This document shows, piece after piece, positions 4,043 to 54,579 of a DNA stretch of 64,000 nt. This stretch comes from an uncultured Bacteroidota bacterium. Lineage in GTDB: Bacteria > Bacteroidota > Bacteroidia > AKYH767-A > JABDAW01. The stretch is from positions 1,428-65,427 of the forward strand of contig CAIMUP010000013.1 of the NCBI GenBank assembly GCA_903844645.1, written 5' to 3'. The notes under the pieces were generated by a model, which did no database searches, was not told the origin of the DNA, and worked only from the letters and a program-made list of their open reading frames with translations. Each line of letters begins with the position of its first letter. Position 1 is the first letter of the stretch. The position numbers were made by a program, and so were the translations under genes.

Positions 4043-4345
4043 AGGCATTAGGAAAAAAAGCAGGGCATCAAATTACCCAATTTCATACCTTAAGTTTTTG
4101 CTCAAGGCATCACATTACCCGATGTGTGGGGTTGAGCAAAAACTTAATGCTTCACATCATCCAATTTGGAGGTATGGGAAAAAAAGTAATGCCCCACATT
4201 ACCCGATTTTGGGGTATGGCAAAAAACCTAATGCCCCACATTACCCAATGTGATGGTATGGCAAAAAACCTAATGCCCCACCTTACCCAATGCGGGGGTA
4301 TGAGCAAAAAAGTAGTGCCTCACATTACCTAATGTGGGGGTGTGA
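4043..4345. repeat. Array B: 42-bp tandem repeat, about 7 copies, each with an internal hairpin
   Basis: The unit is gccccacattacccaatgtgatggtatggcaaaaaacctaat. The anchor gc(a/c/t)(t/c)cac falls at 4065, 4107, 4149, 4191, 4233, 4275 and 4317, a spacing of exactly 42. Each unit contains the dyad cacatt-accc-aatgtg. Confidence 0.95.
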
Positions 4346-7596: not shown

Positions 7597-7639
7597 AAAT
7601 ATTTCTTTGATAGAAGTTGGTAAAGTGAGAAATTATTAG

Positions 7640-7647
7640 TAGTTTTG
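7640..7647 (+). promoter_or_regulatory. candidate -7 box (TAnnTTTG) for the T9SS cargo gene at 7672
   Basis: The box reads tagttttg, with a TTG at 7617-7619 about 20 nt upstream. Confidence 0.35.
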
Positions 7648-7671
7648 TGCGCTCAAATAAAAAACACATAG

Positions 7672-8652
7672 ATGAAAAACTCCCACCTACTCTTTTTCTT
7701 TTTTCTTTTTATAATCGGAAAGCCAATGATTGCGCAGAATCTTGTTCCGAACCCAAGTTTCGAGTTACATGATAGCTGCCCTGATAATGAAGACCAAATA
7801 CAAAGAGCAATAGGATGGTCTAAATACAGTAATATTGCTTCTACTCCTGATTATTATAATGCCTGTGATACTGGTGGACAGTTATGCGTGCCACCAGTTA
7901 ATGGGGGATTTACTCAATCATCAGCACATAGTGGTCATGCTTATGGAGCAGTTGTAACATTTGCTAAACAAATTCATAATTATCGTGAGTATATCGGTAT
8001 ACAATTATCTCAATCTTTAACTATTGGTCAGGATTATTTTCTCTCCTTTTATACAACCACTGGAGAAGTATGGGGTTTAGGAATGCCTTCAAATAATCTT
8101 GGTATTCGTTTATCAACTGTTGCTTTTAATCCAAATAATCCAACTCCAATTAATAATTATGCTCATTTATATTCTTCGGCAATTATTAGTGATACCATAA
8201 ACTGGGTACATGTTTCCGGAACAATAACAGCAGATTCGACTTATCATTATTTGGTAATTGGTAATTTCTTTACTGATAGCCTCACGGACACGATTTGCTG
8301 GCGACAGACAAATTCATTAGAATGTTATTATGCAGTTGACGATATTTGCATTACACCTGCTGCTGATTCAATGATATGTATGGAGTTCACTTCAGTTGAT
8401 GAAATAAAATTTCCCGAGGATATTAATGTATTTCCAAATCCGGCAACTGATTTTGTAAATATCGTTTTCGATGAAAATCAAGAAACGGAAATTATATTAT
8501 TTGATATGTTAGGGAATACGATTTACAAGAATCTAATTACAAATAAGAGCGCAAGATTATGTATATCTGCTATTCCGCGTGGATGTTATGAATTAAAAAT
8601 TACCAGCAAGAGAGATTATAAAACTTATATAAAAAAAATTGTTAAACTATAA
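7672..8652 (+). CDS. secreted protein with a T9SS type A C-terminal sorting domain
   Basis: It has a signal peptide, an N-terminal LVPNPSFE motif and a C-terminal VFPNPATDFVNIVF...YELKI block typical of Por/T9SS CTDs. Confidence 0.7.
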   Translation: MKNSHLLFFFFLFIIGKPMIAQNLVPNPSFELHDSCPDNEDQIQRAIGWSKYSNIASTPDYYNACDTGGQLCVPPVNGGFTQSSAHSGHAYGAVVTFAKQIHNYREYIGIQLSQSLTIGQDYFLSFYTTTGEVWGLGMPSNNLGIRLSTVAFNPNNPTPINNYAHLYSSAIISDTINWVHVSGTITADSTYHYLVIGNFFTDSLTDTICWRQTNSLECYYAVDDICITPAADSMICMEFTSVDEIKFPEDINVFPNPATDFVNIVFDENQETEIILFDMLGNTIYKNLITNKSARLCISAIPRGCYELKITSKRDYKTYIKKIVKL

Positions 8653-8718
8653 AAAAATAAAATGAAAAACTATTGCTTTCGGTTTAGGAAAAATGCAGGG
8701 CGGTTTAGCTTTTATATT

Positions 8719-8926
8719 GACCTGTTTAAAGTTTATGTCGGTCTGTTTAAAGTTTGTATCGGTCTGTTTAAAGTTTAAACAGGTCTGTTTAAAGTTTGTA
8801 TCGGTCTGTTTAAAGTTTAAACAGGTCTGTTTAAAGTTTAAACAGGTCTGTTTAAAGTTTGTATCGGTCTGTTTAAAGTTTAAACAGACCTGTTTAAAAT
8901 TTGTACAGACCTGTTTAAAAACTATA
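8719..8926. repeat. Array C: 21-bp tandem repeat, about 10 copies, two alternating variants
   Basis: The units are ggtctgtttaaagtttgtatc and ggtctgtttaaagtttaaaca, starting at 8719, 8740 ... 8908. Junctions of the b-type variant create the 9-bp inverted repeat tttaaacag-gt-ctgtttaaa. Confidence 0.95.
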
Positions 8927-13761: not shown

Positions 13762-15334
13762 GATAATCTTGCTCGGCATTGACATTCCAGACATTTTCTT
13801 TCGTCGTGATGTCCGCGATAATATTGTCCACGGCGGTCATGGCGCAGAGCATGGAATGGTCTTGGTTGTTGTATTTGTGCATTCCATTGCGACCGATGAG
13901 GAAAAGATTTTGAAAGGCATCGGTGAAAGTTTTAATCTCCTCAAAACGATCGTAAGTACCAAAGTATGCGGGGTAACTTTTCTTCTCTTTGATGATGATT
14001 GCATCGAGAACATCGGAAGCATCAATGAAACCAAGCTGTTGCAATTCGGCGGTAGCAAAAGCTCTCATATCTTCATCCGATTTATTCCACAACGCATCGC
14101 CTTCATCGCAGAAATAATCCAAGCCCAGCCATACTTTCGAGGTGTCATGCAGCATATAGGGACTGAAATTATTATACACCACTATCCGCCCCAGCATTAC
14201 GTTTGGTTCCTGGACATAGATCCAATTATCAGCGATTAAACTCTTGCCATCGCTGTTCTTATAATTCAACTTATTCAACAATAATCCGACGGATATAAAA
14301 TCGCGATAGATAAGACCGCCGGCTACCTCGCTGACATTAGCAGGTACATCCTGCATTGCCGCAATAAGTTGCTTGACGGGCATAGTGGAGAAGAAGTAAT
14401 CGCCATCATAAATTATTTCTTCGGCATTATCAGAAGTGCCGTCGTCAGTAGCTTTGATGGATGTTATGTTATTCCCCGAAGCAATTATCGAAGTAACATT
14501 TTTATTAAAATGTATCGCTCCGCCTTTCGCCAAAATGATACTGGCTACTTCGTCCCACATCTGCCCGGTGCCGAGTTTCGGATAGAGGAAATGCTCGGTG
14601 ATATGTTCATCGGATGTTGAATTATTAATCCCAATAATTTTCTTTAAAGCATGAATAAAAACTTTGGTAACCGATAAGCCCTTGATGCGTTGCGCGCCCC
14701 ATTCCGGCTTGATTTGGTCGCAGGGCACGCCCCAAACCTTCTCGGTATAGTCTTTAAAGAATGTTACATATAGCTCTTTGCCAAAGCGATTAATCAAGAA
14801 ATCTTGTAGCGAGGACTCTTTGCTGATCGGGAATAATTTCACGAGTAGATAACTCCAGAGAATCTTTGAAATCCGCACCAGTCCCAGGTTTCTGATCATT
14901 TCCATACCGAGCGAGACGGGATAAGAGAAGAAACTATGTAGATAAAATATCCGCGTAAAGCGATCTTTAATCAACAGCACTTTATCTTCCGTCAGCGGAT
15001 CGGGACCGGTGGCGGAGAGCGGTATCTTGCGCTTATTATTTTGATAAGAAATCTCAATATCATTTTGGTTAATGCCCTCAATTCCCTGCAACGGCAGGAT
15101 ATTCAGCCACCAGTTCATCACCCGGTCAGATTTTGAGAAGAAGCGATGCGGACCGATGTCTATGCGGTTGCCTTTATAATTAATGGTCTTCGCAAGTCCG
15201 CCCACAACGCTACTTTTTTCTAATATTATCGGCATGATGTCGGTACGCATGAGGAGTTCGTAGGCGGCGGTCAGTCCGGCAGGACCGGCACCGATGATGA
15301 TAGCAGTTTTTTTCTTTCCCTTAATGTCTTCCAT
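13754..15334 (-). CDS. FAD/NAD(P)-dependent oxidoreductase (amine-oxidase / UDP-galactopyranose-mutase-like fold)
   Basis: It has an N-terminal Rossmann motif [20 protein letters not shown], at 526 aa. Confidence 0.8.
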
Positions 15335-15546
15335 GATGGTGGCAAAGAAAGGAAATTCGTGGGGCAGGGATGGAAAACTTTTTTTTCAGAGAATTGTATT
15401 TCTCCACTATTTTTAGTATCATTGCAACCTCGAACAAAAAATGAAGCCTCAAAACACATATAATAATCTCGCAAATCTCTCCAATAATTTTGGAGGTGGG
15501 GCTTGCATATTAAATAGAGTTTGTGTAAACTCGAAGCCGCCTCAAT

Positions 15547-15577
<31 letters not shown>

Positions 15578-15658
15578 CAAATTTTTTGAAATAACCAAAT
15601 CGGAGAACACTTTTTCTGGTTCGGTTCAAAAAATTTCGTTTTCCTTTTCTAATCTTTC

Positions 15659-15951
15659 ATTAAAGTTTCCAAAAATTTCCGCGATTTTTCAGGAATCTTG
15701 GTCAAGTCGCCAGAGTTTTGACCAAAGTTTCATACGCCCCAGCCAAAGTGTGCCGAACTTCAGCCAAAGTTTTGGAAACTTTGACCAAAGTCCAGCGACT
15801 TTGACCAAAGTAGATGAAGATTCGGTTGAGGTTTCTGAAACTTTGACCAAAGTGGGCTTCACCGTGGTCAAAGTTTCTGCTTTCTCGCCCAAAGTTTCCG
15901 GAAATTCCTCCAAAGTTTCCCAAAAATCCCCCAAAGTTTCTGAAACTTCGG
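15659..15951. repeat. Array D: degenerate 21-bp-phased array with conserved core CCAAAGT(TT)
   Basis: Core starts fall at 15722, 15743, 15764, 15785, 15805, 15847, 15868, 15889, 15910 and 15931, giving spacings of 21,21,21,20,42,21,21,21,21. The sequence between cores is variable. Confidence 0.85.
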
Positions 15952-16076
15952 GACCTGTAGGAAGAATATTGGCTGTAAATCAGTCCATTTCTTTCCTGAC
16001 TTCGATTTTCGAGGTCCTTTTACAAAATCCCGCTAACGGAATCCAAATAGAAATTTAATAACTTAATAAATAAACT

Positions 16077-16778
16077 ATGATCATAAATTACAGAGGTCCT
16101 TACAAAGCGGCTACGCTTGACGGGCAAATTGACCAAATCCGAATCATCGGAGTAAAAATGGGAACGTACAAATTAACGTTGGACCTTCTCCAACCGAACA
16201 TTGACCGGGTGAACAACACCTACCTGATGCTTAAATATGTCGATGGCTGCGAAAACAGCGTGGACGGCTACAAAAAAAATCTGAACGATTACAAGCATGA
16301 ATTGTTGAGCGGCGACAAGGCGCATCAGATGAATGCGTTCCCCGTGATGGAGGCGTTTGCCACCGCCCCTGCCGCTACCAAAGGCGGTATTTGGCATTTT
16401 ATCGAAAGCCAACGGAGCATCATGATGGAGCATGATAATTGGACGGACGGCATCGGCGAAGACATGCACCTTTTAGGTCCGATGCGCCAGTTGGATTCTA
16501 ACCTTTATGTGCCCGAAGTGAGGCTGAAAGTGCGAGCCGGAGTTATCGAAGCGATTACCGATTCGGCGATTATCACGAATCATAAACTCTATGTCGGACC
16601 GCAAGGCATTGACCCGATTCCGTTTATCACCGATTTTAAAGGTGCTAAATACGAATATCACCGCACCATCGCGCCCCCGACGACTTCCGAAAAGCTGAAT
16701 GTAATGATTCGCGGCATGTTCGATAATGAAATTATAGGGCACGATTCGGCAATCGTACAGATAGCTTATAAAGGATAA
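16077..16778 (+). CDS. orphan protein P2 (array-fronted, unknown function)
   Basis: This 233-aa ORF has no signal peptide and is preceded by degenerate array D. The start could instead be the internal Met (MGTYKL). Confidence 0.6.
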   Translation: MIINYRGPYKAATLDGQIDQIRIIGVKMGTYKLTLDLLQPNIDRVNNTYLMLKYVDGCENSVDGYKKNLNDYKHELLSGDKAHQMNAFPVMEAFATAPAATKGGIWHFIESQRSIMMEHDNWTDGIGEDMHLLGPMRQLDSNLYVPEVRLKVRAGVIEAITDSAIITNHKLYVGPQGIDPIPFITDFKGAKYEYHRTIAPPTTSEKLNVMIRGMFDNEIIGHDSAIVQIAYKG

Positions 16779-16782
16779 TCTG

Positions 16783-16953
16783 ATGAGTGAAATCCTCCCC
16801 ATTCCGCAAGCTGAAATACCTCCTATTAATATAGGAGGTGTTTCGGTTTTGATTCGTGAAATGAGGAAAGAAATTATGGAGGATGAAAATTATACGGAGG
16901 AAGTGGGAATGAATTTTAAATTAATAGGGAAAGAAATAGAGGAGGAAAAATGA
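16783..16953 (+). CDS. possible 56-aa acidic small protein downstream of P2
   Basis: My hand translation gives MSEILPIPQAEIPPINIGGVSVLIREMRKEIMEDENYTEEVGMNFKLIGKEIEEEK. The ATG lies 5 nt after the P2 stop, and a strong hairpin terminator follows at 17016-17062. It falls below the 60-aa cutoff of the ORF track. Confidence 0.3.
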   Translation: MSEILPIPQAEIPPINIGGVSVLIREMRKEIMEDENYTEEVGMNFKLIGKEIEEEK

Positions 16954-17015
16954 TGACATAAAAAAAGAGAAACTAAAAACACAAACCATGAATAATGGTA
17001 ATATTATAAGCCTAA

Positions 17016-17062
17016 AAAGGAAACCTCTCACGGAAGTGAGAGCGTTTCCTTTTCTTGTTTTT
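17016..17062 (+). terminator. rho-independent terminator closing the P2 / small-ORF unit
   Basis: The arms aaaggaaacctctcac - ggaa - gtgagagcgtttccttt are followed by tcttgttttt. Confidence 0.65.
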
Positions 17063-17125
17063 ATTCAAGATAAAAGGGATATGCTAATGCCCTAACCAAG
17101 TAGGCGAAACTAAAAAATTAATCTT

Positions 17126-19681
17126 ATGTACAATTTAAACACACAAACAAAAAGTAACCAGACCCAAAAAGGTCAAACCAAAGAAAAAAAGTTTTGCCAT
17201 GCGAAACTTAATCACTATTTTGCAGTCGTTATGATGATTGCAATGAGTACACTTTTAACACCGGGGGCTAAGGCTCAAGGAACAACAGTATCTTTATCAA
17301 CCACCGTTTCGCATTTCGTGGGTGGAGCAAACATTTCGTGTAACAGTAACAGCGATGGTAGTGTTACCTTATCGGTTTCTGGAGGGACTACTCCTTACAC
17401 CTATTTATGGTCGGACGATGAAACCACCAAAGATGTAAGCGGACTGTTAGCAGGTACCTACACCGTTACGGTAACTGATGCCAGTGTAAGCGGAGTAACC
17501 GCCACGGCATCCATTACTTTAACCGAACCAGATTTGATAATTGCCAACATTGATTCCGCTTCTTTAATTAAAGTAGCGTGTAATGGCGGAAACAACGGAC
17601 AAGCGGGGGTTACGGCATTTGGCGGAACGGGAGGATATACCTATATGTGGGGATGGGGTACAGACACCGTTCAAACAACCCCTATCGCCACAGGATTATG
17701 GGCAGGGAAATGGAGCGTAACAGTAACCGATACTAACGGTTGCCAGGCATATAATACGGCAACTGTAAATGAACCACCACCAGATACCCTATTATTATTT
17801 TCTCTATCTTCCTTAACGTATTACGATTTAGATTCTGCACAAAAAGCAAGATACGATACCATTATGTCTTATCAGGATATTAATACACCGATTTATTTTA
17901 TTAATATTGCACAACTCGGAACTAATTGTAATAATGCGGGTACTTATAAAATAGTAATGCCATTTTTTTATTATGACAGCATCACTGTAACTACAAACGC
18001 AATACATTATATCTCTAATGATGATTATGAGTTTGGAGGTAATATTGTTATGTCTTCACCGTATATTAATGATACAACGATCATTGATTCGTTTGCAACT
18101 TCGCATTTTGACATTGGAACTATAAACTTAATTGCAGATAGTGGTGCTAGATATGGGAATTTAATTTACAATAACGATTATTATAATATTACGGACTTAT
18201 CAGGAGGAATACAGATTATTTATAAGAAAATTTTATCTGCTGGAAGATGTGGTGATAATACAAACTCTGATGATAATAGGACCAATCAATGGACTCCAAA
18301 CTCCGATCCTTGTGTTTATAAGAGATTAAAAATTCTTTTTTGTTTTACACAAGCAGGGTGGACAGAAGCTTGGCATAATTATGGCGGTTCTATGCATTCT
18401 GTTGCACAACAATGCTTAACTAGTTTGGCGAATGTTTGGGGTTATAGTCAAAACCTTCCTGACTTTAGCGAAGCATGGGCATCAGCGGGAGAAATTATGA
18501 ATACCAATTTGATTGAAACTAATGATGCATGGGAGGATATTAAAACATTTTCTGATCAGGATATATCCTATTATCATTATAGACAACAGTACAATGCTGA
18601 TTTAGTAATATTTATTACTAATGCAAATTATACTGATGGTACCACAGGGCAATCAAGGAAACTTGGACCATGGCGAGACAGTGCTTTTGCTATTGTTGAA
18701 GCAAATTATCTTTTTGGTAATTATTCTTTTGCTCATGAAATTGGTCATTTATTTGGAGCGAGGCATGAAACATGCAATGATGATCCTGGTTATCCTCTTT
18801 CATGTGATCCAAATACAGATAATTCTATAGCACATGGGGTTGAACATGACTTTGTTTGGTATAATTGGCTTCATTCTGTAGATTATCATTGTTATTATCA
18901 TGACATTATGGCATATAAACAAAGCTATGCAGGAAATCATGTAATTACCACTGTACCTTGTTATTCCAATACTAATGAAAATTTTGATGGTCCCGATGGC
19001 AGTCCGCATAGTTTAGGAGATTATACAACGCATGATGCCGCCGCGGAAATTAGTAACAATTATGCTGAAGTGATAAGTTTTTATACAGATGGCAACATTC
19101 CATTTAGCATCAATGTGTCAACATGGGCTCCGGGGCTTTGCGGTGATCCACATAATTTACGTGCTCACCTTAACGTAGTAAATTGTAATGGACCTGATGC
19201 TTATTATATAGATTGGTATGCAAATACATCGGGGGTAAATCTTAATAATTCTCATTATGCATCAAATGTTGACCATATTGAAATGGCACATGGTCATCAT
19301 TGGGTTGGTTATGTAAAAATTACAGATGCAACTAATTCGAATTTAACATGGACTGCTGGTTTCAATGTAGCTTCACCTGCACCTTGTCATCAAAGATTTA
19401 ATGACCCATCAAATTCTAATAAAAAAAGCACTAATTCAGTAGCTATATTTCCAAACCCTAATAATGGTTCTTTCACACTTAATATAAACAGTATTATTGA
19501 TGATAAGGCAGCTTATGAAATAATAAATGTAATGGGTCAGCAAGTATTTCAAGAGAATATTATTTTGAATAAAGGAGAGAATATTTTTGAAATTACTAAA
19601 AACAATTTTGTAGCAGGGTATTATATAATAAGGGTAAAGGGTTCTTCAATGACAAACAACTTACCGTTAATTATAGAATAA
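17126..19681 (+). CDS. secreted metzincin-type zinc metalloprotease with SprB-like N-terminal repeats and a T9SS type A CTD
   Basis: It has the zinc motif HEIGHLFGARH (HExxHxxGxxH), repeated CNGxxxGxxTxxxxGGTxPYTYxW modules and a C-terminal IFPNPNNGSFTLNI...YIIRVKG sorting domain. The true start may be an internal Met before the signal peptide. Confidence 0.8.
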   Translation: MYNLNTQTKSNQTQKGQTKEKKFCHAKLNHYFAVVMMIAMSTLLTPGAKAQGTTVSLSTTVSHFVGGANISCNSNSDGSVTLSVSGGTTPYTYLWSDDETTKDVSGLLAGTYTVTVTDASVSGVTATASITLTEPDLIIANIDSASLIKVACNGGNNGQAGVTAFGGTGGYTYMWGWGTDTVQTTPIATGLWAGKWSVTVTDTNGCQAYNTATVNEPPPDTLLLFSLSSLTYYDLDSAQKARYDTIMSYQDINTPIYFINIAQLGTNCNNAGTYKIVMPFFYYDSITVTTNAIHYISNDDYEFGGNIVMSSPYINDTTIIDSFATSHFDIGTINLIADSGARYGNLIYNNDYYNITDLSGGIQIIYKKILSAGRCGDNTNSDDNRTNQWTPNSDPCVYKRLKILFCFTQAGWTEAWHNYGGSMHSVAQQCLTSLANVWGYSQNLPDFSEAWASAGEIMNTNLIETNDAWEDIKTFSDQDISYYHYRQQYNADLVIFITNANYTDGTTGQSRKLGPWRDSAFAIVEANYLFGNYSFAHEIGHLFGARHETCNDDPGYPLSCDPNTDNSIAHGVEHDFVWYNWLHSVDYHCYYHDIMAYKQSYAGNHVITTVPCYSNTNENFDGPDGSPHSLGDYTTHDAAAEISNNYAEVISFYTDGNIPFSINVSTWAPGLCGDPHNLRAHLNVVNCNGPDAYYIDWYANTSGVNLNNSHYASNVDHIEMAHGHHWVGYVKITDATNSNLTWTAGFNVASPAPCHQRFNDPSNSNKKSTNSVAIFPNPNNGSFTLNINSIIDDKAAYEIINVMGQQVFQENIILNKGENIFEITKNNFVAGYYIIRVKGSSMTNNLPLIIE

Positions 19682-19684
19682 GTT

Positions 19685-20410
19685 ATGAAATATTATATCT
19701 GTATTTTATTGTTGTTTTTTCTATTAAGCAACAAAGTTTTTAGTCAGAGTTTTTATATAATTGGAGGCATGGGATTAAGTGGAGGTTTAGGATATGGATT
19801 AGATGACCATATTATTTTTAAATATAGTAACGGTGTAACCAAAAAAGTTGATGATTATCTTTCACAAAATCCTATATATGGATTTGGTATTTTCGGTTAT
19901 TGTTTATCCAATAAATTTAACATTGAGGTTGGTATTAATAGTTACGGAAAAAATAATAGCTATAGCCATGATGGTCTTCCTTTTTCATATGATAGTGGTT
20001 CATCTAAAAAGGTTCTTCGGATTATGCCTGCTGTTAAATTCAAGTTCACAAAAACTTCCCATTCTTTTTATTTGAAAGGAGGTGCATCACTTGGCTTTGG
20101 CGGTAATGAGTATCGTGCCTTTAAAATTTATAATGATCTACCTCCTTGGGATTCGGGAGGTTATAAAGTTCGATATTCAGGAGGAATTGCGCCTGGATAC
20201 ATGTATGCTATTGGCAAAGATTTTAGTTTTCATCAAGACAAGTATTTTCATTTTTTCAGTTTCTATGTTGAGTTAGTTTTTATAACTAATTCCTGGACTC
20301 CTGCAAAAGAAACGATACTTGAATCATTTGGAAAGATCAACATTCCTTCACTACAATTCTTTTACTCAACAAAAGCAATTCAGATGGGCTTGAAATACAG
20401 TTTTGATTAA
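19685..20410 (+). CDS. outer-membrane beta-barrel protein (porin-like, tentative)
   Basis: It has a signal peptide (…LLSNKVFSQ), a G/Y/S-rich alternating pattern and a C-terminal aromatic-rich end. Confidence 0.55.
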   Translation: MKYYICILLLFFLLSNKVFSQSFYIIGGMGLSGGLGYGLDDHIIFKYSNGVTKKVDDYLSQNPIYGFGIFGYCLSNKFNIEVGINSYGKNNSYSHDGLPFSYDSGSSKKVLRIMPAVKFKFTKTSHSFYLKGGASLGFGGNEYRAFKIYNDLPPWDSGGYKVRYSGGIAPGYMYAIGKDFSFHQDKYFHFFSFYVELVFITNSWTPAKETILESFGKINIPSLQFFYSTKAIQMGLKYSFD

Positions 20411-20436
20411 GCAGAAAAGAGGTAAAAACCATAAAA

Positions 20437-20463
20437 AGCGGTACACAGTGTACCGCTTTTTTG
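20437..20463. terminator. bidirectional terminator between convergent OMP and TolC genes
   Basis: The stem agcggtaca - cag - tgtaccgct is flanked by an A-run and a T-run. Confidence 0.75.
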
Positions 20464-20565
20464 TTTATATTGTAACCCTTTTTTCCTGCTATTGCTACAA
20501 TATTTTATTGAAGGAGGTATTTTAATTTTATTTTTTTGTCCAAAGAATATTTGTAAAATTCCCAA

Positions 20566-21870
20566 TTACTTACCCTTTATCAATTGACCATTGAGGCGCA
20601 TTAATTCTGTCTCTGCAACTTTGGTGTCATAGCGAGCAAGGATTACTGTGTTTTGGGCTCCCTCATAGCTTTGTTGTGCAACGCTCAAATCTAATGCGCT
20701 GCTGGCTCCAAGGCGATAACGTTCCAAGGCAACATCAAGGGTTTCTTTGGCGAGGGTAGAATTTTCTTCGATTAATTTCAGTGCTTCTAAATCGGTTTGG
20801 AAGGTTCTAAAAGCTTTCAAAAGATTTGATGAAACTTGTAATTTAATATCCTCATACATGAAATTATAGTTCTCGATATTGAGCTTCGCATTGCGGATAT
20901 TATGATTGAGAACCGAGCCGTTGAAAAGATTATAATTAATAGTAAACGATGGTCCGATAGCGACGTTTTGACTTTGAATAATAAAGCCCGCAGCATTTTC
21001 CGATCTGGTGCTCGAATATGCAAAACCAACGCCAAGAGTGGGGTAACGCTGCGCCTGCAATTGCCTTAAACCAAGCCTCGCAATCTTGATGTTTCTTTCA
21101 GATAATTGAAGAACCGTATTCTGTTGAATGGTCGAGGTTTTAAGCTCATCGAGAGAAGGTTTATACGTCAGCGAAATGCTATCCAAAACATTAAAATCAA
21201 GCTCTTCATTTCTGGCAATAACCTGGTTAAGATTTGTCTTGGCATTTGCAAGATTGGTATTCTGTTTAATAAGGGTTGATTTCTGAACATTCAAATCAAC
21301 TCGCGCCTGCAAGAAATCAAGCCGTGAACCAGAACCAAGATTGTATTTCTTTTCGGCAAGAGTTACTTTTTCTTCATAGACTTTGATAGCATCTTTTATA
21401 TTTTTTGCAAGTTCCTTTTGACGAACAACATCGTAATAAGAAAGTATGATGGAACTCACCGTGGTCTCAATAGCAATCTTGGAATTCACTTCGCCGATGT
21501 CTTCCAAAACCTTCAGTTTATCGTAAGAAACAAACATGTTGAAGCCATCAAATAATGTCCAAGAAAGAGCCGCACCGTAATTCAAAGCATCTGTCTTGAC
21601 ACCGGATTTATCAACGACATTGCCTGTGGAATAATCTTGATGTGTTTTGTTCATTGCGGTATTTCCATTCGCATAAAGATTCACTTGTGGCAACATCCCT
21701 GCATTGCCCGGAATGTTATTGTTTTTTGCCATTGCAGCGTTATTTTCCGCAACCAGAATGGAATAATTATTCTTCAACCCCAACGCTATTGCTTGGTCAA
21801 GCGTCAAGAGGTCTTGTGAATAGATTGAAACGGAAATAGAGATAAAAATTAATAGGAATAGATTTTTCAT
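20566..21870 (-). CDS. TolC-family outer membrane efflux protein
   Basis: It has a signal peptide, two internal OEP-type repeats and the N-terminal LTLDQAIALGLKNN motif. Confidence 0.85.
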   Translation of the reverse strand: MKNLFLLIFISISVSIYSQDLLTLDQAIALGLKNNYSILVAENNAAMAKNNNIPGNAGMLPQVNLYANGNTAMNKTHQDYSTGNVVDKSGVKTDALNYGAALSWTLFDGFNMFVSYDKLKVLEDIGEVNSKIAIETTVSSIILSYYDVVRQKELAKNIKDAIKVYEEKVTLAEKKYNLGSGSRLDFLQARVDLNVQKSTLIKQNTNLANAKTNLNQVIARNEELDFNVLDSISLTYKPSLDELKTSTIQQNTVLQLSERNIKIARLGLRQLQAQRYPTLGVGFAYSSTRSENAAGFIIQSQNVAIGPSFTINYNLFNGSVLNHNIRNAKLNIENYNFMYEDIKLQVSSNLLKAFRTFQTDLEALKLIEENSTLAKETLDVALERYRLGASSALDLSVAQQSYEGAQNTVILARYDTKVAETELMRLNGQLIKGK

Positions 21871-21876
21871 TGCTAT

Positions 21877-22938
21877 TTAGTGTTTGATAAAATGCTTTTT
21901 CTTTTCAGGAATCAAGAGGGATAAAACGATACTTAAAGTAAGGATGGTACCGATAATTATTAATGAATCTTCGATGGTGAAACCATGTTCTTTGAGCCAA
22001 TCGTTGAAGATCATTTTTATACCGATGAAGACTAATAACACCGATAGTCCATGTTTGAAGAAATGAAATTTATGGATGATATTAATCAATAAAAAGAACA
22101 ATGACCTTAATCCAAGGATGGCAAAAATATTCGAGAAGAAAACGATGTAAGGGTCTTTGGTTACCGCGAAAATAGCGGGAATTGAATCTACTGCGAATAA
22201 AATATCGGTGAATTCTATTATTAATAATACAAGAAAAAGCGGGGTGATCAAATTCTTATGATTTATCTTTACGAAGAATTTATTGCCAACAAAATGTTCA
22301 TGAATGCTAAAATATTTAGAAGCAAATTTCACGACCGGATGGCTCTCTGTTTCTATTTTTTCTTCTTGGTTTCTATTAACGAACATTCTGATGCCGGTGA
22401 AGATTAAAAAGGCGGCGAAGAGATACAATATCCATTCAAATTTTGTTATTAAAAATGAACCGGTAAAGATGAATAGAAACCTAAATAATACCGCCCCTAT
22501 TATTCCCCAAAATAATACGCGATGATACAAACGTTTTTCGACATTAAATGCTGTAAAAATAAGGATGATAACAAAGAGATTATCCATAGACAGTGCCTCT
22601 TCTATGACATAGCCTGTGAGGAATTCCAAAGATAATTCATGACGATAATTGATTACGCTTTGGGTGTAATTATTCTCGATTAAAGCGATCGTTTGTCCGT
22701 ATTTATTAATGTGGAATTTGAGACTCTCCATCGAAGAAATGCCGTGAATATTTTCTCCATAAAAATGAAGAATTAAATAGAAGGCAAAAGCCAAAGAAAT
22801 CCAAACAATGGTTTTCAGTAAAGCTTGTTTAGATCTGACGATATGGTCATGTTTATTGAATACTCCTAAATCAATTATCAGCGCAATGACGATAAAGATC
22901 AGGAAGAAAGAAAAATAGTATAATTCGCCGGAATTCAT
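21877..22938 (-). CDS. TerC-family integral membrane protein
   Basis: It is polytopic, with TerC-like motifs (EEALSMDNLFVIILIF; FAVDSIPAIFAVT). Confidence 0.85.
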   Translation of the reverse strand: MNSGELYYFSFFLIFIVIALIIDLGVFNKHDHIVRSKQALLKTIVWISLAFAFYLILHFYGENIHGISSMESLKFHINKYGQTIALIENNYTQSVINYRHELSLEFLTGYVIEEALSMDNLFVIILIFTAFNVEKRLYHRVLFWGIIGAVLFRFLFIFTGSFLITKFEWILYLFAAFLIFTGIRMFVNRNQEEKIETESHPVVKFASKYFSIHEHFVGNKFFVKINHKNLITPLFLVLLIIEFTDILFAVDSIPAIFAVTKDPYIVFFSNIFAILGLRSLFFLLINIIHKFHFFKHGLSVLLVFIGIKMIFNDWLKEHGFTIEDSLIIIGTILTLSIVLSLLIPEKKKHFIKH

Positions 22939-22964
22939 GGCGGCAAAGTTATATTAATGGGAGG

Positions 22965-23366
22965 TTATATTCTTTTTGCAAAAAGGTATCCGATAAAGGC
23001 ACAGGGGATGTACAAAAGTTGGCTTGTAATATTGAACCACATTGGCTGATCGGGCAATGAAATGAGATTCATTAATCCTCCAAAAAATATCACTGCTCCT
23101 ACGATTATTGCGGAACGTGCACTCTCTTTTCCGGCTATTAAAGTTGCGACAAATCCTCCCGCAAAACTTCCGATAATATACCCAAAAAGAATAAAAAGAT
23201 ATGCACCAACGGGCATTCCTTTCATCATTTCTTTGACCGATTCGGGGTTCAAAAAATCCATTCTGGCAGGGGCGGGATAAATTTTCCCGCTGATTTTTTC
23301 CATCAAGGCAATTAATCCGATTGCTATTGCCAAACCTATTATTACAGCTAAAATTCTTTTTGCCAT
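22965..23366 (-). CDS. small membrane protein, unknown function
   Basis: This 133-aa ORF has about 4 TM segments and is co-directional and tightly spaced with the TerC gene. Confidence 0.5.
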   Translation of the reverse strand: MAKRILAVIIGLAIAIGLIALMEKISGKIYPAPARMDFLNPESVKEMMKGMPVGAYLFILFGYIIGSFAGGFVATLIAGKESARSAIIVGAVIFFGGLMNLISLPDQPMWFNITSQLLYIPCAFIGYLFAKRI

Positions 23367-23373
23367 GATTGTT

Positions 23374-23571
23374 TTATTTTATTCGATTAAAATTTGTTTT
23401 AGGAGGGGCAAAGGTATAAAAAGGGAGGTTTAGGTTTAAATCAGGGTTAATTTCCTTGTTAATTTTCCATTCCCCAAGGTTATCAATAGATGAAAATGGC
23501 TCCAAAACTTGCCCAAAAGCAATAGCAATAGTGCTAATTAGCAAAGTCACAAAACAAGACCGTTTTGCCAT
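23374..23571 (-). CDS. possible small secreted protein
   Basis: This 65-aa ORF has a signal-like N-terminus and ends 8 nt upstream of the next gene. Support is weak. Confidence 0.25.
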   Translation of the reverse strand: MAKRSCFVTLLISTIAIAFGQVLEPFSSIDNLGEWKINKEINPDLNLNLPFYTFAPPKTNFNRIK

Positions 23572-23846
23572 TTAGCATTAATACTCTTGTTTTCGGCAGG
23601 ATTTTTAACCTGAATTACATTAAAACAATGCTTGAAAAGGGTGTCGAAAGCAGACGTAAAACTTTCATTAATGAATCAAACAAGCACTCGACAGACAATT
23701 TTATGGTTTTAATTACAGTGAAACCACTCCTTATATTCAGGGCGCATTTTAGGATGGCGAAAATTTGCAGGCAACAGTTTTATAATTTTCAGAAATTAGG
23801 GTTTAATAGAATTCCTTGGAATATTTTTAGTTACGATAAATTTGTG

Positions 23847-23854
23847 TAGATTTG
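23847..23854 (+). promoter_or_regulatory. candidate -7 box (TAnnTTTG) for gyrA
   Basis: The sequence tagatttg lies 47 nt upstream of the ATG at 23901. Confidence 0.4.
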
Positions 23855-23900
23855 CAGCCTTAATAAAAGCAAACGATTTAAAAGATAAATAACAGATATA

Positions 23901-26477
23901 ATGGCAGAAAGAGATAGAATAATTCCGATAAATATTGAGGAAGAAATGAAATCGGCGTACATTGATTATTCAATGTCGGTGATCGTATCGAGGGCTTTAC
24001 CGGATGTAAGGGACGGGCTGAAACCGGTGCACAGACGGGTGTTGTATGGGATGCTCGAGTTGGGAGTGTTGTCTAATCGTCCTTATAAAAAATCCGCGAG
24101 AATCGTGGGTGAGGTGCTTGGAAAATACCATCCGCATGGCGATACTTCGGTGTATGATGCGATGGTGAGGATGGCGCAGCATTGGTCGTTGCGGTATCCC
24201 TTGGTTGATGGGCAGGGAAACTTTGGGTCGGTGGATGGCGATAGTCCGGCGGCGATGCGATATACCGAGGCGAGGCTGAAAAAGATTGCGGAGGAATTGT
24301 TGTTGGATATTGATAAGGATACGGTTGATTTCCGGTTGAACTTCGATGATTCTTTGAAAGAGCCGACGGTTTTGCCTGCGAAGATTCCGAATTTGTTGAT
24401 TAATGGAGCCTCGGGAATTGCTGTGGGAATGGCGACGAATATGCCGCCGCATAATATTACGGAGGTGATTAATGCGTGTATTATTTATATTGATAAACGC
24501 GATGTGACGGCAGAGGAACTGGCGATGTTTGTGAAGGCTCCAGACTTCCCGACGGGCGGAATTATTCATGGCGTGGAAGGTGTGAAGGAGGCGTTTACTA
24601 CTGGTCGTGGGCGGATTGTGATGCGTGGAAAGGTGAATGTTGAAGTGATGGATAATGGTCGCGATAGAATTGTGGCGACGGAGATTCCTTATCAATTGAA
24701 TAAGGCTTCGATGATTAAACAAACTGCCGATCTGGTGAACGATAAAAAGATTGATGGGATCTCTGATCTTCGCGATGAATCGGATAGGGACGGGATGCGA
24801 GTGGTTTATGAATTGCGCAAGGACGCGGTGACGAACGTGGTGCTGAATAGTCTGTATAAATATACGGGCTTGCAGACTTCGTACAGTGTGAATAATATTG
24901 CGCTGGTGCATGGTCGCCCGATGATGCTGAACTTGCGGGATATGATTAAGCATTACATTGATCATCGTCATGAAGTGGTGATTCGGAGGACTAAATTTGA
25001 ATTGGCGGAGGCAGAAAAGCGGGCACATATTCTTGAAGGTTTGTTGATTGCTTTAGATCATTTGGATGAGGTAATTAAATTGATTCGTGCATCGCAAACT
25101 GTTGAAGAAGCGAGGACGGGATTGATGACGAACTTTGAATTATCAGAGATTCAGGCACGTGCTATTCTTGATTTGAGATTACAGAAACTGACCGGGCTGG
25201 AGCGTGAAAAGATTAAGGCTGAATATGATGAGTTGATGACCTTTATTGCTTATTGCAAGAGTGTTTTGGCAGATGAAGGATTGCGTTATGATATCATCAA
25301 AAAGGAGTTGAATGAAATGAAGGATAAGTATGGCGATGCCCGCCGTACTGCTATTGAATTTTCGAGTGGCGATATGTCTATGGAAGATTTGATTCCTGAT
25401 GAGGCGGTTGTTGTTACGATTTCTCACATGGGATATATCAAACGGACTTCTCTTTCTGAATATAAAGTTCAGGGACGTGGCGGAAAAGGTGCTAAAGGAA
25501 CCACTACTCGTGATGAGGATTTCGTAGAATATATTATCCCGGCTACTGCGCATAATTATATGCTCTTCTTCACCGAGCAAGGAAAGTGTTTCTCGATGCG
25601 TGTATTTGAAATACCAGAAGGTAGTAGAACGATGAAAGGACGTGCCATTCAGAATATGATTAATATTCCTCCTGATGATAAGATTAAAGCATTTATCACC
25701 GTAAAGAACATGAAGGATGAGGAGTATATCAAGAACAATTATATCATCATGTGTACCAAGAAAGGTGTTATCAAAAAGACAAGGTTGGATCAATATGCCA
25801 AGCCACGTAAGACTGGGCTATTAGCTATAAAGATTAAGGAAGGAGATCAATTGTTAGAGGCTCATTTAACAGATGGTAATTGCGAGATTATGATGGCTGT
25901 GAAGTCGGGTCGTGCAAATCATTTCCATGAGTCTAAGATTAAACCCCAGGGAAGGAATACCGGTGGCGTAATAGGCATCAGAACGAAGAGAGATAAAGAT
26001 GAAGTTATCGGAATGATAGTCCTTAATAAGAGCGAAGGTGAAACCGTGTTGGTAGTATCAGAGAAAGGCTGCGGTAAGCGTTCTAATCCTGAATTTTATC
26101 CATTGAAAAACCGCGGGGGACAGGGTGTTATCACTTTAAAGATTACCGACAAGACTGGCAAGCTCATCGCTATCAAGAAAGTATCTGATAACGACGACTT
26201 GATGATCATCAATAAGTCCGGTTTGGTCATTCGTTTGGATGTGAAGGATGTGAAGTTGCTATCAAGAAATTCATCTGGCGTTATTCTTATTCGTTTTAAG
26301 GACAAGGATAAAGATAAGATTGCTTCCGTTACCAGTGTGCCGCATTTGGATGATGAAGAAGAGGTAGTTGATGGCATCGAAAACAGCATTACCGATGATG
26401 CCGCGAACGATTCCAATGCCCATGACATTCAGGAGAATAGTGCTACGGACGATGTGTTACCTCCCGACTTTGAATAA
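23901..26477 (+). CDS. gyrA: DNA gyrase subunit A
   Basis: It has the canonical N-terminus ([27 protein letters not shown]), the active-site AAMRYTE and C-terminal beta-pinwheel repeats. Confidence 0.97.
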
Positions 26478-28142: not shown

Positions 28143-28646
28143 ATGAAGATAAATTTTATATTGGATGGGTTCGATTTTGATGATACCCACCAGGCTCATC
28201 AGGTGTTTGAGAATATTGGGCAAGAGATGGGGAGGGTAATTACCGATAAATTGCGCCATTTGGTGGGCTTTCAGGATGAGCATGGTCAGTTTGGCGGCAC
28301 GATAGAGATTCATGCGAGCATTCATGGTCCTGATTTGAACAAAGCAGATACCGCCCAATATAATAAGGAGTACGATTACTATTTTGATGTTCAGGATGCA
28401 GACCATATTGTGGTCGTTCCGAAGAAAAAAGGTGGTACCAATCCTGATAATATTACCAAAACGGAGAAGACTTATCTGCAAGAAATGATTGATGGTACTT
28501 CCAATAAAATTATTGCTGATGATCATGACAAAAATATAGAAACGGTGAAGTCAAACAAGAAAAGTATTCGATTTAAGACTAAATGCAAGACTCCGGGGGA
28601 CTTGAAAAAATACGTTGATAAACATAAACTCTTATTAAAAGAATAA
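28143..28646 (+). CDS. small protein with a C-terminal LuxR/GerE-type HTH and an unrecognised N-terminal domain
   Basis: The C-terminus ITKTEKTYLQEMIDGTSNKIIADDHDKNIETVKSNKKSIRFK fits the GerE pattern (T-x-x-E...L...G-x-SNK-x-IA......TVK......I..K). The start was set at the MKINF Met. Confidence 0.55.
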   Translation: MKINFILDGFDFDDTHQAHQVFENIGQEMGRVITDKLRHLVGFQDEHGQFGGTIEIHASIHGPDLNKADTAQYNKEYDYYFDVQDADHIVVVPKKKGGTNPDNITKTEKTYLQEMIDGTSNKIIADDHDKNIETVKSNKKSIRFKTKCKTPGDLKKYVDKHKLLLKE

Positions 28647-28850
28647 TTCACCCTTTTGAGGGATTGTTTTAGGAACTAATACCTTGTAATTTTGCATCCT
28701 TAATTACAAACAATGGATCATTACAATCACATAGCGAATACAACGGATAGCAATCACGACAGAGGCAATGCTTCTGGAAGGTTTTTCAATGGTGGCGGTA
28801 GTGATATGGATACAAATTGTAGTTTAAACATATGCCAAAAAAACTCAAAC

Positions 28851-29102
28851 ATATCTTTTAGTAACAATAAGATACCTTTTAGTAACAATAAGATACCTTT
28901 TAGTAACAATAAGATACCTTTTAGTAACAATAAGATACCTTTTAGTAACATAAAGATATGTTTTAGTAACAAAAAGATACCTTTTAGTAACAAAAAGATA
29001 CCTTTTAGTAACAAAAAGATACCTTTTAGTAACAAAAAGATATGTTTTAGTAACAAAAAGATACCTTTTAGTAACAATAAGATATGTTTTAGTTTTTCTC
29101 AC
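28851..29102. repeat. Array E: 21-bp tandem repeat, about 12 copies
   Basis: The unit is ataccttttagtaacaataag, with variants atatg... and ...aaaaag. Starts fall at 28851, 28872 ... 29082. Confidence 0.95.
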
Positions 29103-29205
29103 CATAGTAAAAGCAATAGTTGCTATGGTGATGGGTCTTTTCAGAATGCCCACCCCTCTCCCTTGTATTCAAAACCAAGTAGTAACATAATAAAATAACA
29201 ATAAA

Positions 29206-29973
29206 ATGAGTCTATTAAAATTAGTATTAGTAAAAATTTCTATCTTCATGATCATCACGAAGGCTTCCATCATGAGGCAGTACCTTTTAGATTGTGTCAG
29301 TGCGGGTTCTGCCTCCACTTTGTATGCCAATCCGGCTATTACCACTGCCTTTTATACCTCGATGACGAATGCTGCGGCTGCCATTCAGACAGCGGTAACA
29401 GTTTGTGCGGCGAACAACACGAAGGCAAACAGGGATGCCATTAAAGATGCTATCGCAGCAGGAAAAGTGGTCGCGGCAAGCTATGCTTCGCAAGTTCAGG
29501 TGATTGCCAATCTCCCTATTAATGCCGCTACCCGCGAGGCAGCAAAGACAAATATTGAACAATCGCATCTGACGGCACAAAAATTAAATCAAACAACCAT
29601 AGGAATACCCGAAACCCCTGTATTAACGGGCGAAAATAACGGCATCGGCAAGATAAAAGTAAAGGTTACCAATCCTGGCGTATCGTATGACCCTAAAACT
29701 ATTATTTTTGTTGCTGTTTCCCTGCCCATAGTGCCTGTAACGGTGCCGCCAACACCTCCTCCGGCTGACCCCGTAGTTACGCTCATAGCAGGACAAGTGA
29801 TGGTAAAGACTTCCGTGGCATGCGAAGTGATAACCATCACCCAGGATGGCAAAGGAAGAGAGGTAGATTTGGTTGGATTGACTGCCGGCACTCGCTTTTC
29901 CATCTCTGCCTACACAAAAAATGGCAATAAATTGGTGAGCGTATTGTCGAACGCTATTATCGTACAGGCATAA
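29206..29973 (+). CDS. orphan protein P3 (array-fronted, unknown function)
   Basis: This 255-aa ORF has an Ala-rich helical N-terminal half, a Pro-rich linker (PVTVPPTPPPADP) and a beta-rich Ig/Fn3-like C-terminus. It shares a weak N-terminal motif with P1 (KAS..., YANP...AF). Confidence 0.6.
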   Translation: MSLLKLVLVKISIFMIITKASIMRQYLLDCVSAGSASTLYANPAITTAFYTSMTNAAAAIQTAVTVCAANNTKANRDAIKDAIAAGKVVAASYASQVQVIANLPINAATREAAKTNIEQSHLTAQKLNQTTIGIPETPVLTGENNGIGKIKVKVTNPGVSYDPKTIIFVAVSLPIVPVTVPPTPPPADPVVTLIAGQVMVKTSVACEVITITQDGKGREVDLVGLTAGTRFSISAYTKNGNKLVSVLSNAIIVQA

Positions 29974-37950: not shown

Positions 37951-38202
37951 ATGAATATCTTTTGCTTCGGGATGAATATCCTTTGCTTCGGGATGAATAT
38001 CCTTTGCTTCGGGATGAATATCCTTTGCTTCGGGGTGAATATCTTTTGCTTCGGGGTGAATATCTTTTGCTTCGGGATGAATATCCTTTGCTTCGGGATG
38101 AATATCCTTTGCTTCGGGATGAATATCTTTTGCTTCGGGATGAATATCTTTTGCATCGGGATGAATATCTTTTCATCCGGCTTCAATACATTTTCATCCC
38201 GG
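37951..38202. repeat. Array G: 21-bp tandem repeat, 12 copies
   Basis: The unit is atgaatatcctttgcttcggg. Starts fall at 37951, 37972 ... 38182. It lies between the terminator at 37870-37908 and the ppiC-type gene at 38399. Confidence 0.95.
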
Positions 38203-38358
38203 GTTAATGTCTTACATGAACTTTTCCCCGTTATAAAACCCGATTTGGAGGGGTAAAAAGGGAGGTTTTTGGAAATTCTCCACCCTCCATTTCCCACTTT
38301 TAAGTCTCCATTCCCCATTTTCCATTCCCCATTCTTTTTCCATTGTCAGGAAATTTTA

Positions 38359-41277: not shown

Positions 41278-41445
41278 TATTAAATACGACTACAATGATG
41301 CCGTCATCTCCTACAATGATAGCGTCATCTACTACAATTATGCCGTCATCTACTACAATTATGCCGTCATCTACTACAATGATGGCGTCATCTACTACAA
41401 TTATGCCGTCATCTACTACAATGATGGCAACTTCGACTACACATT
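41278..41445. repeat. Array H: 21-bp tandem repeat, 8 copies
   Basis: The unit is tgccgtcatctactacaatta. Starts fall at 41278, 41299 ... 41425. The array ends 15 bp before the surA-like ATG (41460). Confidence 0.95.
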
Positions 41446-43868: not shown

Positions 43869-44162
43869 CGGCTGTTGATTGGAGAAAGTCGGCTGTTGAT
43901 TGGGGAAAGTTGACTGTTGATTGGGGAAAGTCGGCTGTTGATTGGGGAAAGTCGGCTGTTGATTGGGGAAAGTTGACTGTTGATTGGGGAAAGTCGGCTG
44001 TTGATTGGGGAAAGTCGGCTGTTGATTGGGGAAACATGGACGTAGATTGGGGAAACATGGACGTAGATTGCGGAAACATGGACGTAGATTGGGGAAACAT
44101 GGAGGTAGATTGTAGAAACATGGAGGTAGATTGCAGAAACATGGAGGTAGATGGGTTTTACA
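43869..44162. repeat. Array I: 21-bp tandem repeat, 14 copies in two subfamilies
   Basis: It has 8 units of (c/t)g(g/a)ctgttgattggggaaagt, arranged cgg,cgg,tga in a 63-bp higher order. Six units of tgga(c/g)gtagattgnngaaaca follow. Starts fall at 43869 ... 44142. Confidence 0.95.
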
Positions 44163-50299: not shown

Positions 50300-51691
<1,392 letters not shown>

Positions 51692-54558: not shown

Positions 54559-54579
54559 ACGAAAAGGATAGTAAAAGCT

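Follow-up and report, generated by a model that had tools for sequence, protein, structure and literature searches.

Three groups of described proteins come closest to the gene considered here: the zinc metalloproteases of Bacteroidota that carry a type A sorting domain of the type IX secretion system (T9SS), the ADAM/adamalysin zymogens, and the SprB-repeat adhesins of gliding Bacteroidota. The gene lies at 17126-19681 on the forward strand of a 64,000-nucleotide stretch of contig CAIMUP010000013.1 (positions 1,428 to 65,427; assembly GCA_903844645.1) from an uncultured Bacteroidota bacterium; we call this whole stretch the window and count all coordinates from its first letter. From its open reading frame (ORF) and its matches to Pfam and TIGR04183, the gene is predicted to encode an 851-residue, T9SS-secreted, reprolysin/adamalysin-like (M12B-like) zinc metalloprotease with a pair of SprB repeats at its N terminus. 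G+C content drops abruptly inside it, and an earlier note, made from the sequence alone, took the drop to be the edge of a foreign or fast-evolving low-GC cassette of roughly 2.6 kb that had recombined in frame into a resident gene. We find that the drop marks a genuine junction, at which two compositionally distinct modules are joined in frame, but that homologues identify the module on the other side of the junction as the addition.

With the T9SS type A metalloproteases, exemplified by a Saprospiraceae protein annotated 'zinc-dependent metalloprotease' with a Por_Secre_tail domain (P0123), the window protein shares the order of prodomain, HExxHxxGxxH motif, immunoglobulin (Ig)-like domain and sorting domain, as well as zinc ligands and a candidate switch cysteine that are invariant or nearly so. 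It differs in having the SprB pair, with 224 residues rather than about 28 before the prodomain, and in its partner, a 241-residue protein unrelated to the 176-189-residue proteins that accompany P0123 and another homologue, P0124. The ADAM/adamalysin zymogens (ADAM17, 8snl and 9o54; ADAM8, 4dd8; ADAM33, 1r55) are alike in catalytic fold and prodomain (Foldseek E values of 5e-9 to 5e-5), in the metzincin motif and in a methionine about 48 residues beyond the third histidine; however, identity is 10-18%, global TM-scores are 0.2-0.37, and the window protein has a T9SS signal and no disintegrin or Cys-rich domains. Its two repeats are bona fide PF13573 domains, about 50% identical to consecutive repeat pairs within long SprB-repeat arrays and with the same high GC at second codon positions (GC2), but they stand before an enzyme prodomain instead of forming a long array, and a role in motility is not indicated. 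The novelty is modest: a new architecture, with an adhesin-type repeat pair before a protease prodomain, within a known family of 812 detected relatives. Our literature search found no paper on the GC content of T9SS cargo or on fusions of SprB with metalloproteases.

The compositional break is sharp by every measure applied. The hand counts of the earlier note were exact on recounting (27/60 G+C at 17401-17460 and 16/60 at 18121-18180), and in 300-nt sliding windows GC falls from 0.45-0.48 at 17200-17800 to 0.29-0.30 at 17800-18200. For segmentation we used optimal partitioning (30-nt bins, penalty 14, with shuffled bins as the null), as a greedy binary procedure missed nested blocks. The window resolves into eight GC segments, whereas shuffled bins gave a single segment every time, and one breakpoint falls at 17790|17791, just where a switch near 17790 had been proposed. 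GC at third codon positions (GC3) has its top changepoint within the gene at codon 207 (nt 17747), where it falls from 0.39 to 0.20; the log-likelihood ratio of 14.4 was matched by none of 2,000 permutations. The sliding-window check that the earlier note had suggested thus returns a significant breakpoint. Among the intragenic GC3 breaks of the 42 genes in the window this one ranks second, the gene at rank three scoring 9.7. The GC3 seam lies at most 15 codons from the boundary of both domains and homology at residues 221/222, and the switch does come directly after the SprB-like repeats, two PF13573 repeats that adjoin the seam.

The step is not simply a matter of amino-acid composition. Of the fall in total GC from 0.439 to 0.332, first codon positions (GC1) account for 7%, GC2 for 41% and GC3 for 52%. 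In a Cochran-Mantel-Haenszel test stratified by amino acid, the SprB pair differs from the rest of the gene at p = 2.5e-5, the synonymous shift being carried by Thr (19/31 GC-ending codons against 10/45), Ser, Asn and Ala, with Gly, Val and Pro codons equal on both sides. An internal control is available within the body: its Ig-like domain has an SprB-type fold, yet the third positions of that domain are AT-rich, with a GC3 of 0.148 (residues 651-770). Fold type and amino-acid composition are therefore insufficient to explain the GC3 shift and, given the stratified test as well, the synonymous difference exceeds any effect of composition.

Which of the two modules is the newcomer is answered by the homologues. 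A word-indexed search with the whole protein returned SprB-repeat proteins only, each covering 15-30% of the query, while the same search with residues 221-851 returned one real homologue, P0121 (689 residues, 35% identity). The alignment with P0121 runs from window residue 222, opposite P0121 residue 28 and just past its signal peptide, through the last residue, and the sorting domain is better conserved than the overall identity. The exhaustive HMMER search that detected the wider family was made with residues 221-770; 66 of the relatives score at E <= 1e-10, and among all 812 nearly every one has about 600-650 residues, the match beginning near residue 25-50. Residues 222-851 are homologous end to end with proteins of about 600-690 residues. 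Across 37 aligned homologues, 1-42 residues (median 28) precede the equivalent of window residue 225, compared with 224 in the window protein; in complete homologues these residues are signal peptides, and four sequences look N-terminally truncated. The SprB module is absent from all 37, and none of ten relatives scanned with Pfam has an SprB match above the cut-off. Because every one of the 37 has at most 42 residues at this place, we take the AT-rich part to be the complete ancestral gene, to which the SprB pair was added. The idea of a low-GC cassette put into a resident gene is thereby turned round: the body is the full ancestral secreted protein.

The added module sits directly behind a putative signal peptide. 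The translation of 17126-17278 (forward strand, residues 1-51, ending ...LLTPGAKAQ) has the pattern of one, with a basic KEKK stretch, a hydrophobic YFAVVMMIAMSTLL segment and an AKA-Q site, all behind a leader that, at about 20 residues, is unusually long. This part has a GC3 of 0.298 against 0.465 expected (z = -2.3), and the spacer upstream of the gene has a GC of 0.337. The SprB (Ig-like) pair follows at 17279-17788 (forward strand, residues 52-221), matching the PF13573 hidden Markov model in two stretches at 64.4 bits (cut-off 28); its two repeats are 37% identical and align with each other at E = 1e-12, which makes them less alike than the pair is to repeat pairs of long arrays. It is the GC-richer module, with a GC of 0.471 and, over residues 1-225, a GC2 of 0.516, and its fraction of Phe, Tyr, Met, Ile, Asn and Lys (0.172) is atypical against a core mean of 0.352. 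SprB-repeat genes in three unrelated genomes have a GC2 of 0.51-0.61 against mostly 0.26-0.45 in their neighbours, with a GC3 near that of the neighbours and not above it; the high GC2 is a generic property of the domain, in which Gly, Thr, Ser and Ala abound. The GC3 of the window pair is 0.356, whereas its amino acids and the codon usage of the window would predict 0.488 (z = -3.45). The N terminus is therefore not the 'GC-normal' remnant for which it had been taken, as it is depleted at third positions and the GC2 share of the step is intrinsic to SprB.

The remainder of the protein has the predicted make-up of a secreted zymogen. A prodomain-like N-domain (17789-18325, forward strand, residues 222-400), delimited by homology to P0121, the family alignment and AlphaFold/Foldseek, contains Cys375 in a GRCGD motif; all 38 aligned sequences have this residue (C155 of the alignment), a candidate cysteine switch. 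The adamalysin-fold catalytic domain (18326-19075, forward strand) is recognized by Pfam as Reprolysin_5 (36.6 bits, cut-off 27), Reprolysin_3 (29.5, cut-off 22.4) and Reprolysin_4 (27.4, cut-off 22), by Foldseek, and by its zinc motif HEIGHLFGARH (HExxHxxGxxH; 18734-18766, residues 537-547). H317 and H327 of the alignment occur in every one of 38 family members, E318 and H321 in at least 90% of them, and M595 (18908-18910), about 48 residues past the third histidine, aligns with the family consensus 'TIM' as a candidate Met-turn. In P0121 (JGI 3300050821) the motif reads HQVGH, with loss of the catalytic Glu, and that protein is possibly a pseudo-protease; the window protein retains the Glu.

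An AlphaFold model of residues 221-770, built on 38 family sequences, reached a pLDDT of 80 and a pTM of 0.87. In Foldseek it is matched best by PDB structures of the ADAM17 zymogen and of its prodomain plus metalloproteinase (E of 5e-9 to 2e-6), the catalytic domains of ADAM8, ADAM33 and ADAMTS also match, and at the sequence level the protease has no match in the PDB. Between the catalytic and sorting domains lies an Ig/PKD-like beta-sandwich (19103-19366, forward strand; strands at model residues 440-527), which matches PKD1 of Vibrio Epp and PrtV (TMt 0.78-0.80) and is weakly similar to the SprB repeat. The T9SS type A C-terminal sorting domain (19445-19681, forward strand) scores 30.3 bits with PF18962 (Por_Secre_tail; residues 774-841, cut-off 27) and 36.1 bits with TIGR04183 (cut-off 23). 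GC3 is 0.20 for residues 221-470, 0.148 for residues 471-650 and 0.19 for the sorting domain, while the Phe, Tyr, Met, Ile, Asn and Lys fraction of the body, 0.353, is that of the host core.

These features predict a route in which the protein would be exported via Sec and its type A sorting domain recognized by the T9SS; motif and homology show that it carries a metzincin active site. From sequence and model we infer proteolytic activity, and that Cys375 keeps the protease latent. No T9SS machinery (PorK/L/M/N, Sov, PorU/V) is encoded within the 64-kb window; a host T9SS is nevertheless implied, because the window contains two more sorting-domain genes, one of type A (7672-8652) and one of type B (46424-48589).

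Those genes also share the codon usage of the protease body. The three T9SS cargo genes and the 241-residue gene that follows the protease are the four most GC3-depleted genes of the window, with z values of -13.9 (whole protease gene), -9.5 and -7.6 for the cargo genes and -7.8 for the 241-residue gene. Codon usages of the cargo genes correlate at r = 0.78-0.92 with one another and at 0.63-0.69 with core genes; with the protease body, the correlations of the other two are 0.92 and 0.86. The higher value belongs to the type A gene at 7672-8652 (forward strand, GC3 0.196), the third T9SS cargo gene. The gene at 46424-48589 (forward strand) is a second mosaic, combining a GloVer-repeat payload with PKD domains and a type B (CHU_C) sorting domain, and no other intragenic GC3 break in the window is as strong as its seam at codon 456 (log-likelihood ratio 47.0), which again lies at a domain boundary. 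GC3 is 0.21 in its first 455 codons, which hold the GloVer repeats, and 0.57 in the PKD and sorting domains, and segmentation independently called a low-GC segment at 46561-47790. A 279-residue gene just downstream (48636-49475) has no family match and no match to PorP/SprF. Comparison with other cargo genes, which had also been proposed as a check, gives a mixed answer: the AT-rich codon usage is common to the cargo of the window, but the significant breakpoint stands. As a side observation, the first 30 codons of these two further cargo genes (7672-7761 and 46424-46513) have a core-like GC3 of about 0.47-0.53 and the payloads one of about 0.2, on small counts; over the 42 genes, GC3 of the first 30 codons minus that of the rest averages -0.016 (standard deviation 0.105).

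That T9SS cargo might be AT-rich everywhere was considered and rejected: in 80 other Bacteroidota loci, the sorting-domain genes (n = 14) had a median GC3 difference from their neighbours of -0.007 (p = 0.95). GC3 in P0123 and P0124 is about 0.1 below that of their neighbours. In bacterial genomes accessory genes are AT-richer than core genes, according to Bohlin et al. 2017 (PMC5303225). The class in the window resembles the accessory class described there in that poorly conserved secreted genes are synonymously AT-richer than conserved neighbours. It differs in that the contrast is unusually large (GC3 of about 0.20 against about 0.50), that switches occur within genes at domain boundaries, and that genes with a C-terminal sorting domain in the other Bacteroidota loci are without such depletion. 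The class could be caused by transfer from lower-GC relatives, or by weaker selection or biased gene conversion acting on lineage-specific genes; that such genes lie nearer an AT-biased mutational equilibrium is an alternative to transfer and matches that general finding.

What the analysis establishes is a breakpoint that falls on the homology boundary, a set of aligned relatives that all lack SprB, and an AT-rich codon class common to the cargo genes. We hold it to be moderately probable that the GC step near 17790 arose by domain accretion, with an SprB pair inserted into a complete, AT-rich cargo protease gene. The ancestral gene would have encoded a full T9SS cargo zymogen, with signal peptide, Cys-switch prodomain, adamalysin-like protease, Ig-like domain and type A sorting domain, in the AT-rich codon usage (GC3 of about 0.2) common to the T9SS cargo payloads of the window; members of the family typically have about 600-660 residues. 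A long SprB-repeat adhesin gene is the probable source of two consecutive repeats, which would have entered in frame right after the signal-peptide cleavage site, presumably by illegitimate or microhomology recombination with an SprB gene. The block would lift total GC twice, through the GC2 of about 0.52 that its amino acids impose and through the GC3 of about 0.36 of its own codon usage. That usage is intermediate between core and body, which fits a separate history, although some 163 informative codons are no proof. The product would be exported by Sec and the T9SS, be held latent by the prodomain cysteine and shed the SprB pair with the prodomain upon activation, so that any action of the pair, be it in folding, spacing or transient adhesion, would concern the zymogen rather than the mature enzyme. 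In kind, this is ordinary domain shuffling or accretion, alongside an AT-rich codon class that is peculiar to the cargo payloads of this genome.

Several observations weigh against such an insertion. Codon usage of the SprB pair correlates with that of core genes at r = 0.69 and with that of the protease body at 0.74, its Thr, Ser and Asn codons being core-like and its Gly, Val and Pro codons body-like; with 163 informative codons, the gene may still have a single origin and domain-specific codon preferences. The junction (17100-17950) contains no repeats or microhomology above chance, all repeats there being short, and the 8-mer GATACCCT, spotted by eye in the vicinity of both seams (in 17126-19681 and 46424-48589), is within chance expectation. 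A donor SprB gene was not identified, as no match exceeds 52% amino-acid identity, and the event is therefore old or its donor unsampled. Finally, a distant homologue of 1198 residues (P0131) has a sub-threshold SprB match upstream of its protease, and loss of SprB in all relatives is a formal, if unparsimonious, alternative to its gain.

Among the other explanations, the one that survives best has no recombination seam at all. The gene would have had a single history, and the step would reflect amino-acid composition, acting through GC2, together with synonymous preferences specific to the SprB domain. Nearly half of the drop lies at first and second positions, high GC2 is universal in SprB-repeat genes, and the SprB pair has a GC3 below that of the genome and a codon usage slightly closer to the body than to the core; cargo in the 80 other loci is moreover not generally GC3-poor, so that local oddities may be idiosyncratic. 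However, the larger share of the drop is at third positions and persists after stratification by amino acid, the Ig-like domain within the body has the same AT-rich third positions as the rest of it, SprB genes in the three other genomes do not exceed their neighbours in GC3, and not one of the 37 aligned homologues has the SprB pair. We consider this account unlikely.

A broader proposal, which we think improbable, is that the cargo genes of this lineage are built and renewed by swapping very AT-rich payload cassettes, in frame, for host-like modules, much as polymorphic toxins exchange their C termini. Host-like modules may in that case include the signal-peptide codons, SprB, PKD and the type B sorting domain. 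Three observations fit the proposal: within 64 kb, sharp GC3 seams lie exactly at domain boundaries in two of the three cargo genes, the payloads have one codon usage in common (r = 0.78-0.92), and two cargo genes begin with 30 codons of core-like GC3.

The cassette of the earlier note, about 2.6 kb of foreign or fast-evolving low-GC DNA comprising protease, sorting domain and downstream gene, with the SprB N terminus as the remnant of the resident gene, has some compositional evidence in its favour. The body and the 241-residue gene are the most GC3-depleted of the window. In GC-normalized dinucleotide signature, the three most atypical of 123 pieces of 2.65 kb all overlap the protease gene, and the block 17791-20440, at 0.129 where the mean is 0.068, would come fourth. 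Close relatives of the body are moreover very few, the search for homologues of the downstream gene detected none, and the P0121 protease is likewise followed 4 nt on by a small gene (224 residues), amid different neighbours. But the body starts at the mature N terminus of a complete family, which leaves no resident gene for a remnant; the leader, signal peptide and upstream spacer are low in GC too; the GC3 of SprB is below the core value; and the body shares its amino-acid usage with the core and its codon usage with other cargo genes. There is no tRNA in the window, no integrase, transposase or other mobility domain in the neighbouring genes, no flanking repeat above chance, no phage relative and, among plasmids, only a weak match (27% identity to a plasmid-borne metalloprotease). 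A body derived from a much lower-GC donor was considered separately and is unsupported, its amino-acid usage being that of the host core. What stands of the earlier claim is thus the joining of two modules in frame, at a true domain boundary; the foreign cassette recombined into a resident gene is unsupported, and we regard it as quite doubtful.

Synteny, also named as a check, could be compared only with relatives too distant to decide. Sampling of the lineage is poor: the best GyrA identity among 185,579 GTDB species representatives is 70%, and such genomes share gyrA-TPR only; a query with the OEP protein against genome contigs gave no match, and a metagenome scan for the DNA of P0121 returned two matches only, both to the sorting domain alone. 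The nearest metagenomic relative (L087/L088), with a GyrA identity of 93.6%, also shares only gyrA-TPR: DNA similarity begins at 23823, just before gyrA, an ATP-binding cassette (ABC) transporter lies upstream of gyrA instead, and the adjacent TPR protein is about 56% identical. Its locus has a GC of 0.375 and its gyrA a GC3 of 0.35, and a 253-residue ORF without a Pfam match has a GC3 of 0.17; lower-GC relatives able to act as donors therefore exist. At 303 synonymous differences between gyrA of the window (23901-26477) and of this relative (L087, 4026-6608), the GC-ending codon is in the window 166 times and in the relative 76 times, so that core GC3 differs markedly between close lineages (0.47 against 0.35). 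A 'foreign' origin of the AT-rich body is neither shown nor excluded.

To the right, the extent of the AT-rich block depends on the measure. By optimal partitioning the low total-GC segment runs from 17791 to 23970 (GC 0.342), ending at the start of gyrA, and it encloses three reverse-strand genes beyond the 241-residue gene: an OEP/TolC-like gene (20566-21870) and a TerC gene (21877-22938), both identified by Pfam, and a gene for a 133-residue membrane protein (22965-23366). GC3 is 0.15-0.20 in the protease body, 0.205 in the 241-residue gene, 0.31-0.38 in the OEP, TerC and 133-residue genes and 0.44 in gyrA; the extreme depletion, to about 0.20, is limited to the protease body and the 241-residue gene and stops at a terminator. 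This terminator, previously placed at 20437-20463, is confirmed at 20433-20461 as a bidirectional intrinsic terminator between convergent gene pairs, with a 13-bp stem containing five G-C pairs and T-runs on both strands; its loop has a single-nucleotide polymorphism (SNP) at 20447 in other samples, and an Rfam scan of 15000-24000 gave zero matches. The suggestion that the low-GC block ends there holds for the extreme GC3 depletion but not for total GC, which stays low to 23970.

One could accordingly suppose that the whole 6.2-kb segment, 17791-23970, is a single acquired island upstream of gyrA with its left end inside the protease gene. Segmentation does give a single block, and similarity to the nearest relative, with its ABC transporter in this place, begins only at the right end. 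Yet GC3 is uneven along the segment, with the two-gene unit set apart from the OEP, TerC and 133-residue genes; the low GC of the latter is largely membrane-protein composition (GC2 of TerC, 0.237); the relative, as its TPR protein indicates, is too distant for missing synteny to mean much; and there are no mobility genes. We judge such an island very improbable. Least of all do we credit a chimera of two organisms joined near 17790 during metagenome assembly, which the origin of the window in a metagenome-assembled contig might suggest, because the identical junction with an intact frame recurs in five independently assembled contigs from various samples and assemblers (L001, L002, L091, L095 and L096), near-clonal population contigs with zero SNPs across the whole protease gene.

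The 241-residue gene (19685-20410, forward strand) is an ORF that starts 4 nt after the protease stop codon, and its codon usage is AT-rich like that of the body. Among 5.8 billion proteins the search for a homologue returned only the protein itself; it has no Pfam match, and the best family match is sub-threshold, to an AcfA outer-membrane protein (13.9 bits against a cut-off of 100). The protein has a signal peptide and a strand-rich sequence, and its single-sequence AlphaFold model was unusable (pLDDT 33); a putative outer-membrane beta-barrel is plausible. The distant homologues P0123 and P0124 are each directly followed by a small protein with a lipoprotein-like N terminus (176 residues, L085 11726-12256, and 189 residues, L086 3973-4542). 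These two are homologous to each other (E = 1e-13) and not to the 241-residue protein, and could be a conserved partner of the protease family, for example an inhibitor or a chaperone. The contig of P0124 (L086) also has two near-identical 158-residue genes (1572-2048 and 7624-8100), each directly upstream of a T9SS cargo gene.

Elsewhere, the window is rich in tandem repeats. At least 13 arrays, mostly intergenic, have a period of 21 nt (or 42/63) and 2.5-12 copies, with a unit sequence that differs from array to array: 1859-2044, 4111-4341, 8711-8919, 15888-15940, 28847-29093, 37951-38213, 41289-41426, 43869-44152, 49949-50152, 51563-51690, 54568-54722, 58018-58151 and 61985-62078. A length of 21 nt corresponds to two helical turns. 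Some of these arrays coincide with breaks in contigs of the same population, and the nearest relative has such arrays too; about 1.65 Mb of other loci contain only 11 period-21 arrays, at least three of them in L087/L088. The array at 28847-29093 makes up much of a low-GC segment (28441-29250, GC 0.294) and overlaps a 161-residue ORF without a family match (28713-29198) that is probably spurious. An (AC)14 microsatellite at 15547-15574, encoding Thr-His in frame within ORF 15441-16058, is 6 nt longer in L001, L091 and L096; this ORF has no family match and is possibly no real gene, and the 21-nt repeat at 15888-15940 follows the microsatellite. Just upstream of the protease gene, a 233-residue ORF (16077-16778) without a Pfam or NCBIfam match has the highest local GC (0.47-0.52; GC3 0.55), and public gene calls place ORFs of 56 and 35 residues after it.

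For composition scans, the locus illustrates that an intragenic GC step may mark a real junction and yet mislead as to direction. Since the amino acids of SprB-type repeats are enough to raise GC, synonymous sites and the architecture of the family should be checked before a segment is called 'foreign'. If the unusually sharp two-class split in codon usage along domain boundaries proved to be genome-wide, it would be a marker for the assembly of secreted multidomain proteins, and it could help to decide whether AT-rich accessory genes result from lateral transfer or from weakened selection or biased gene conversion.

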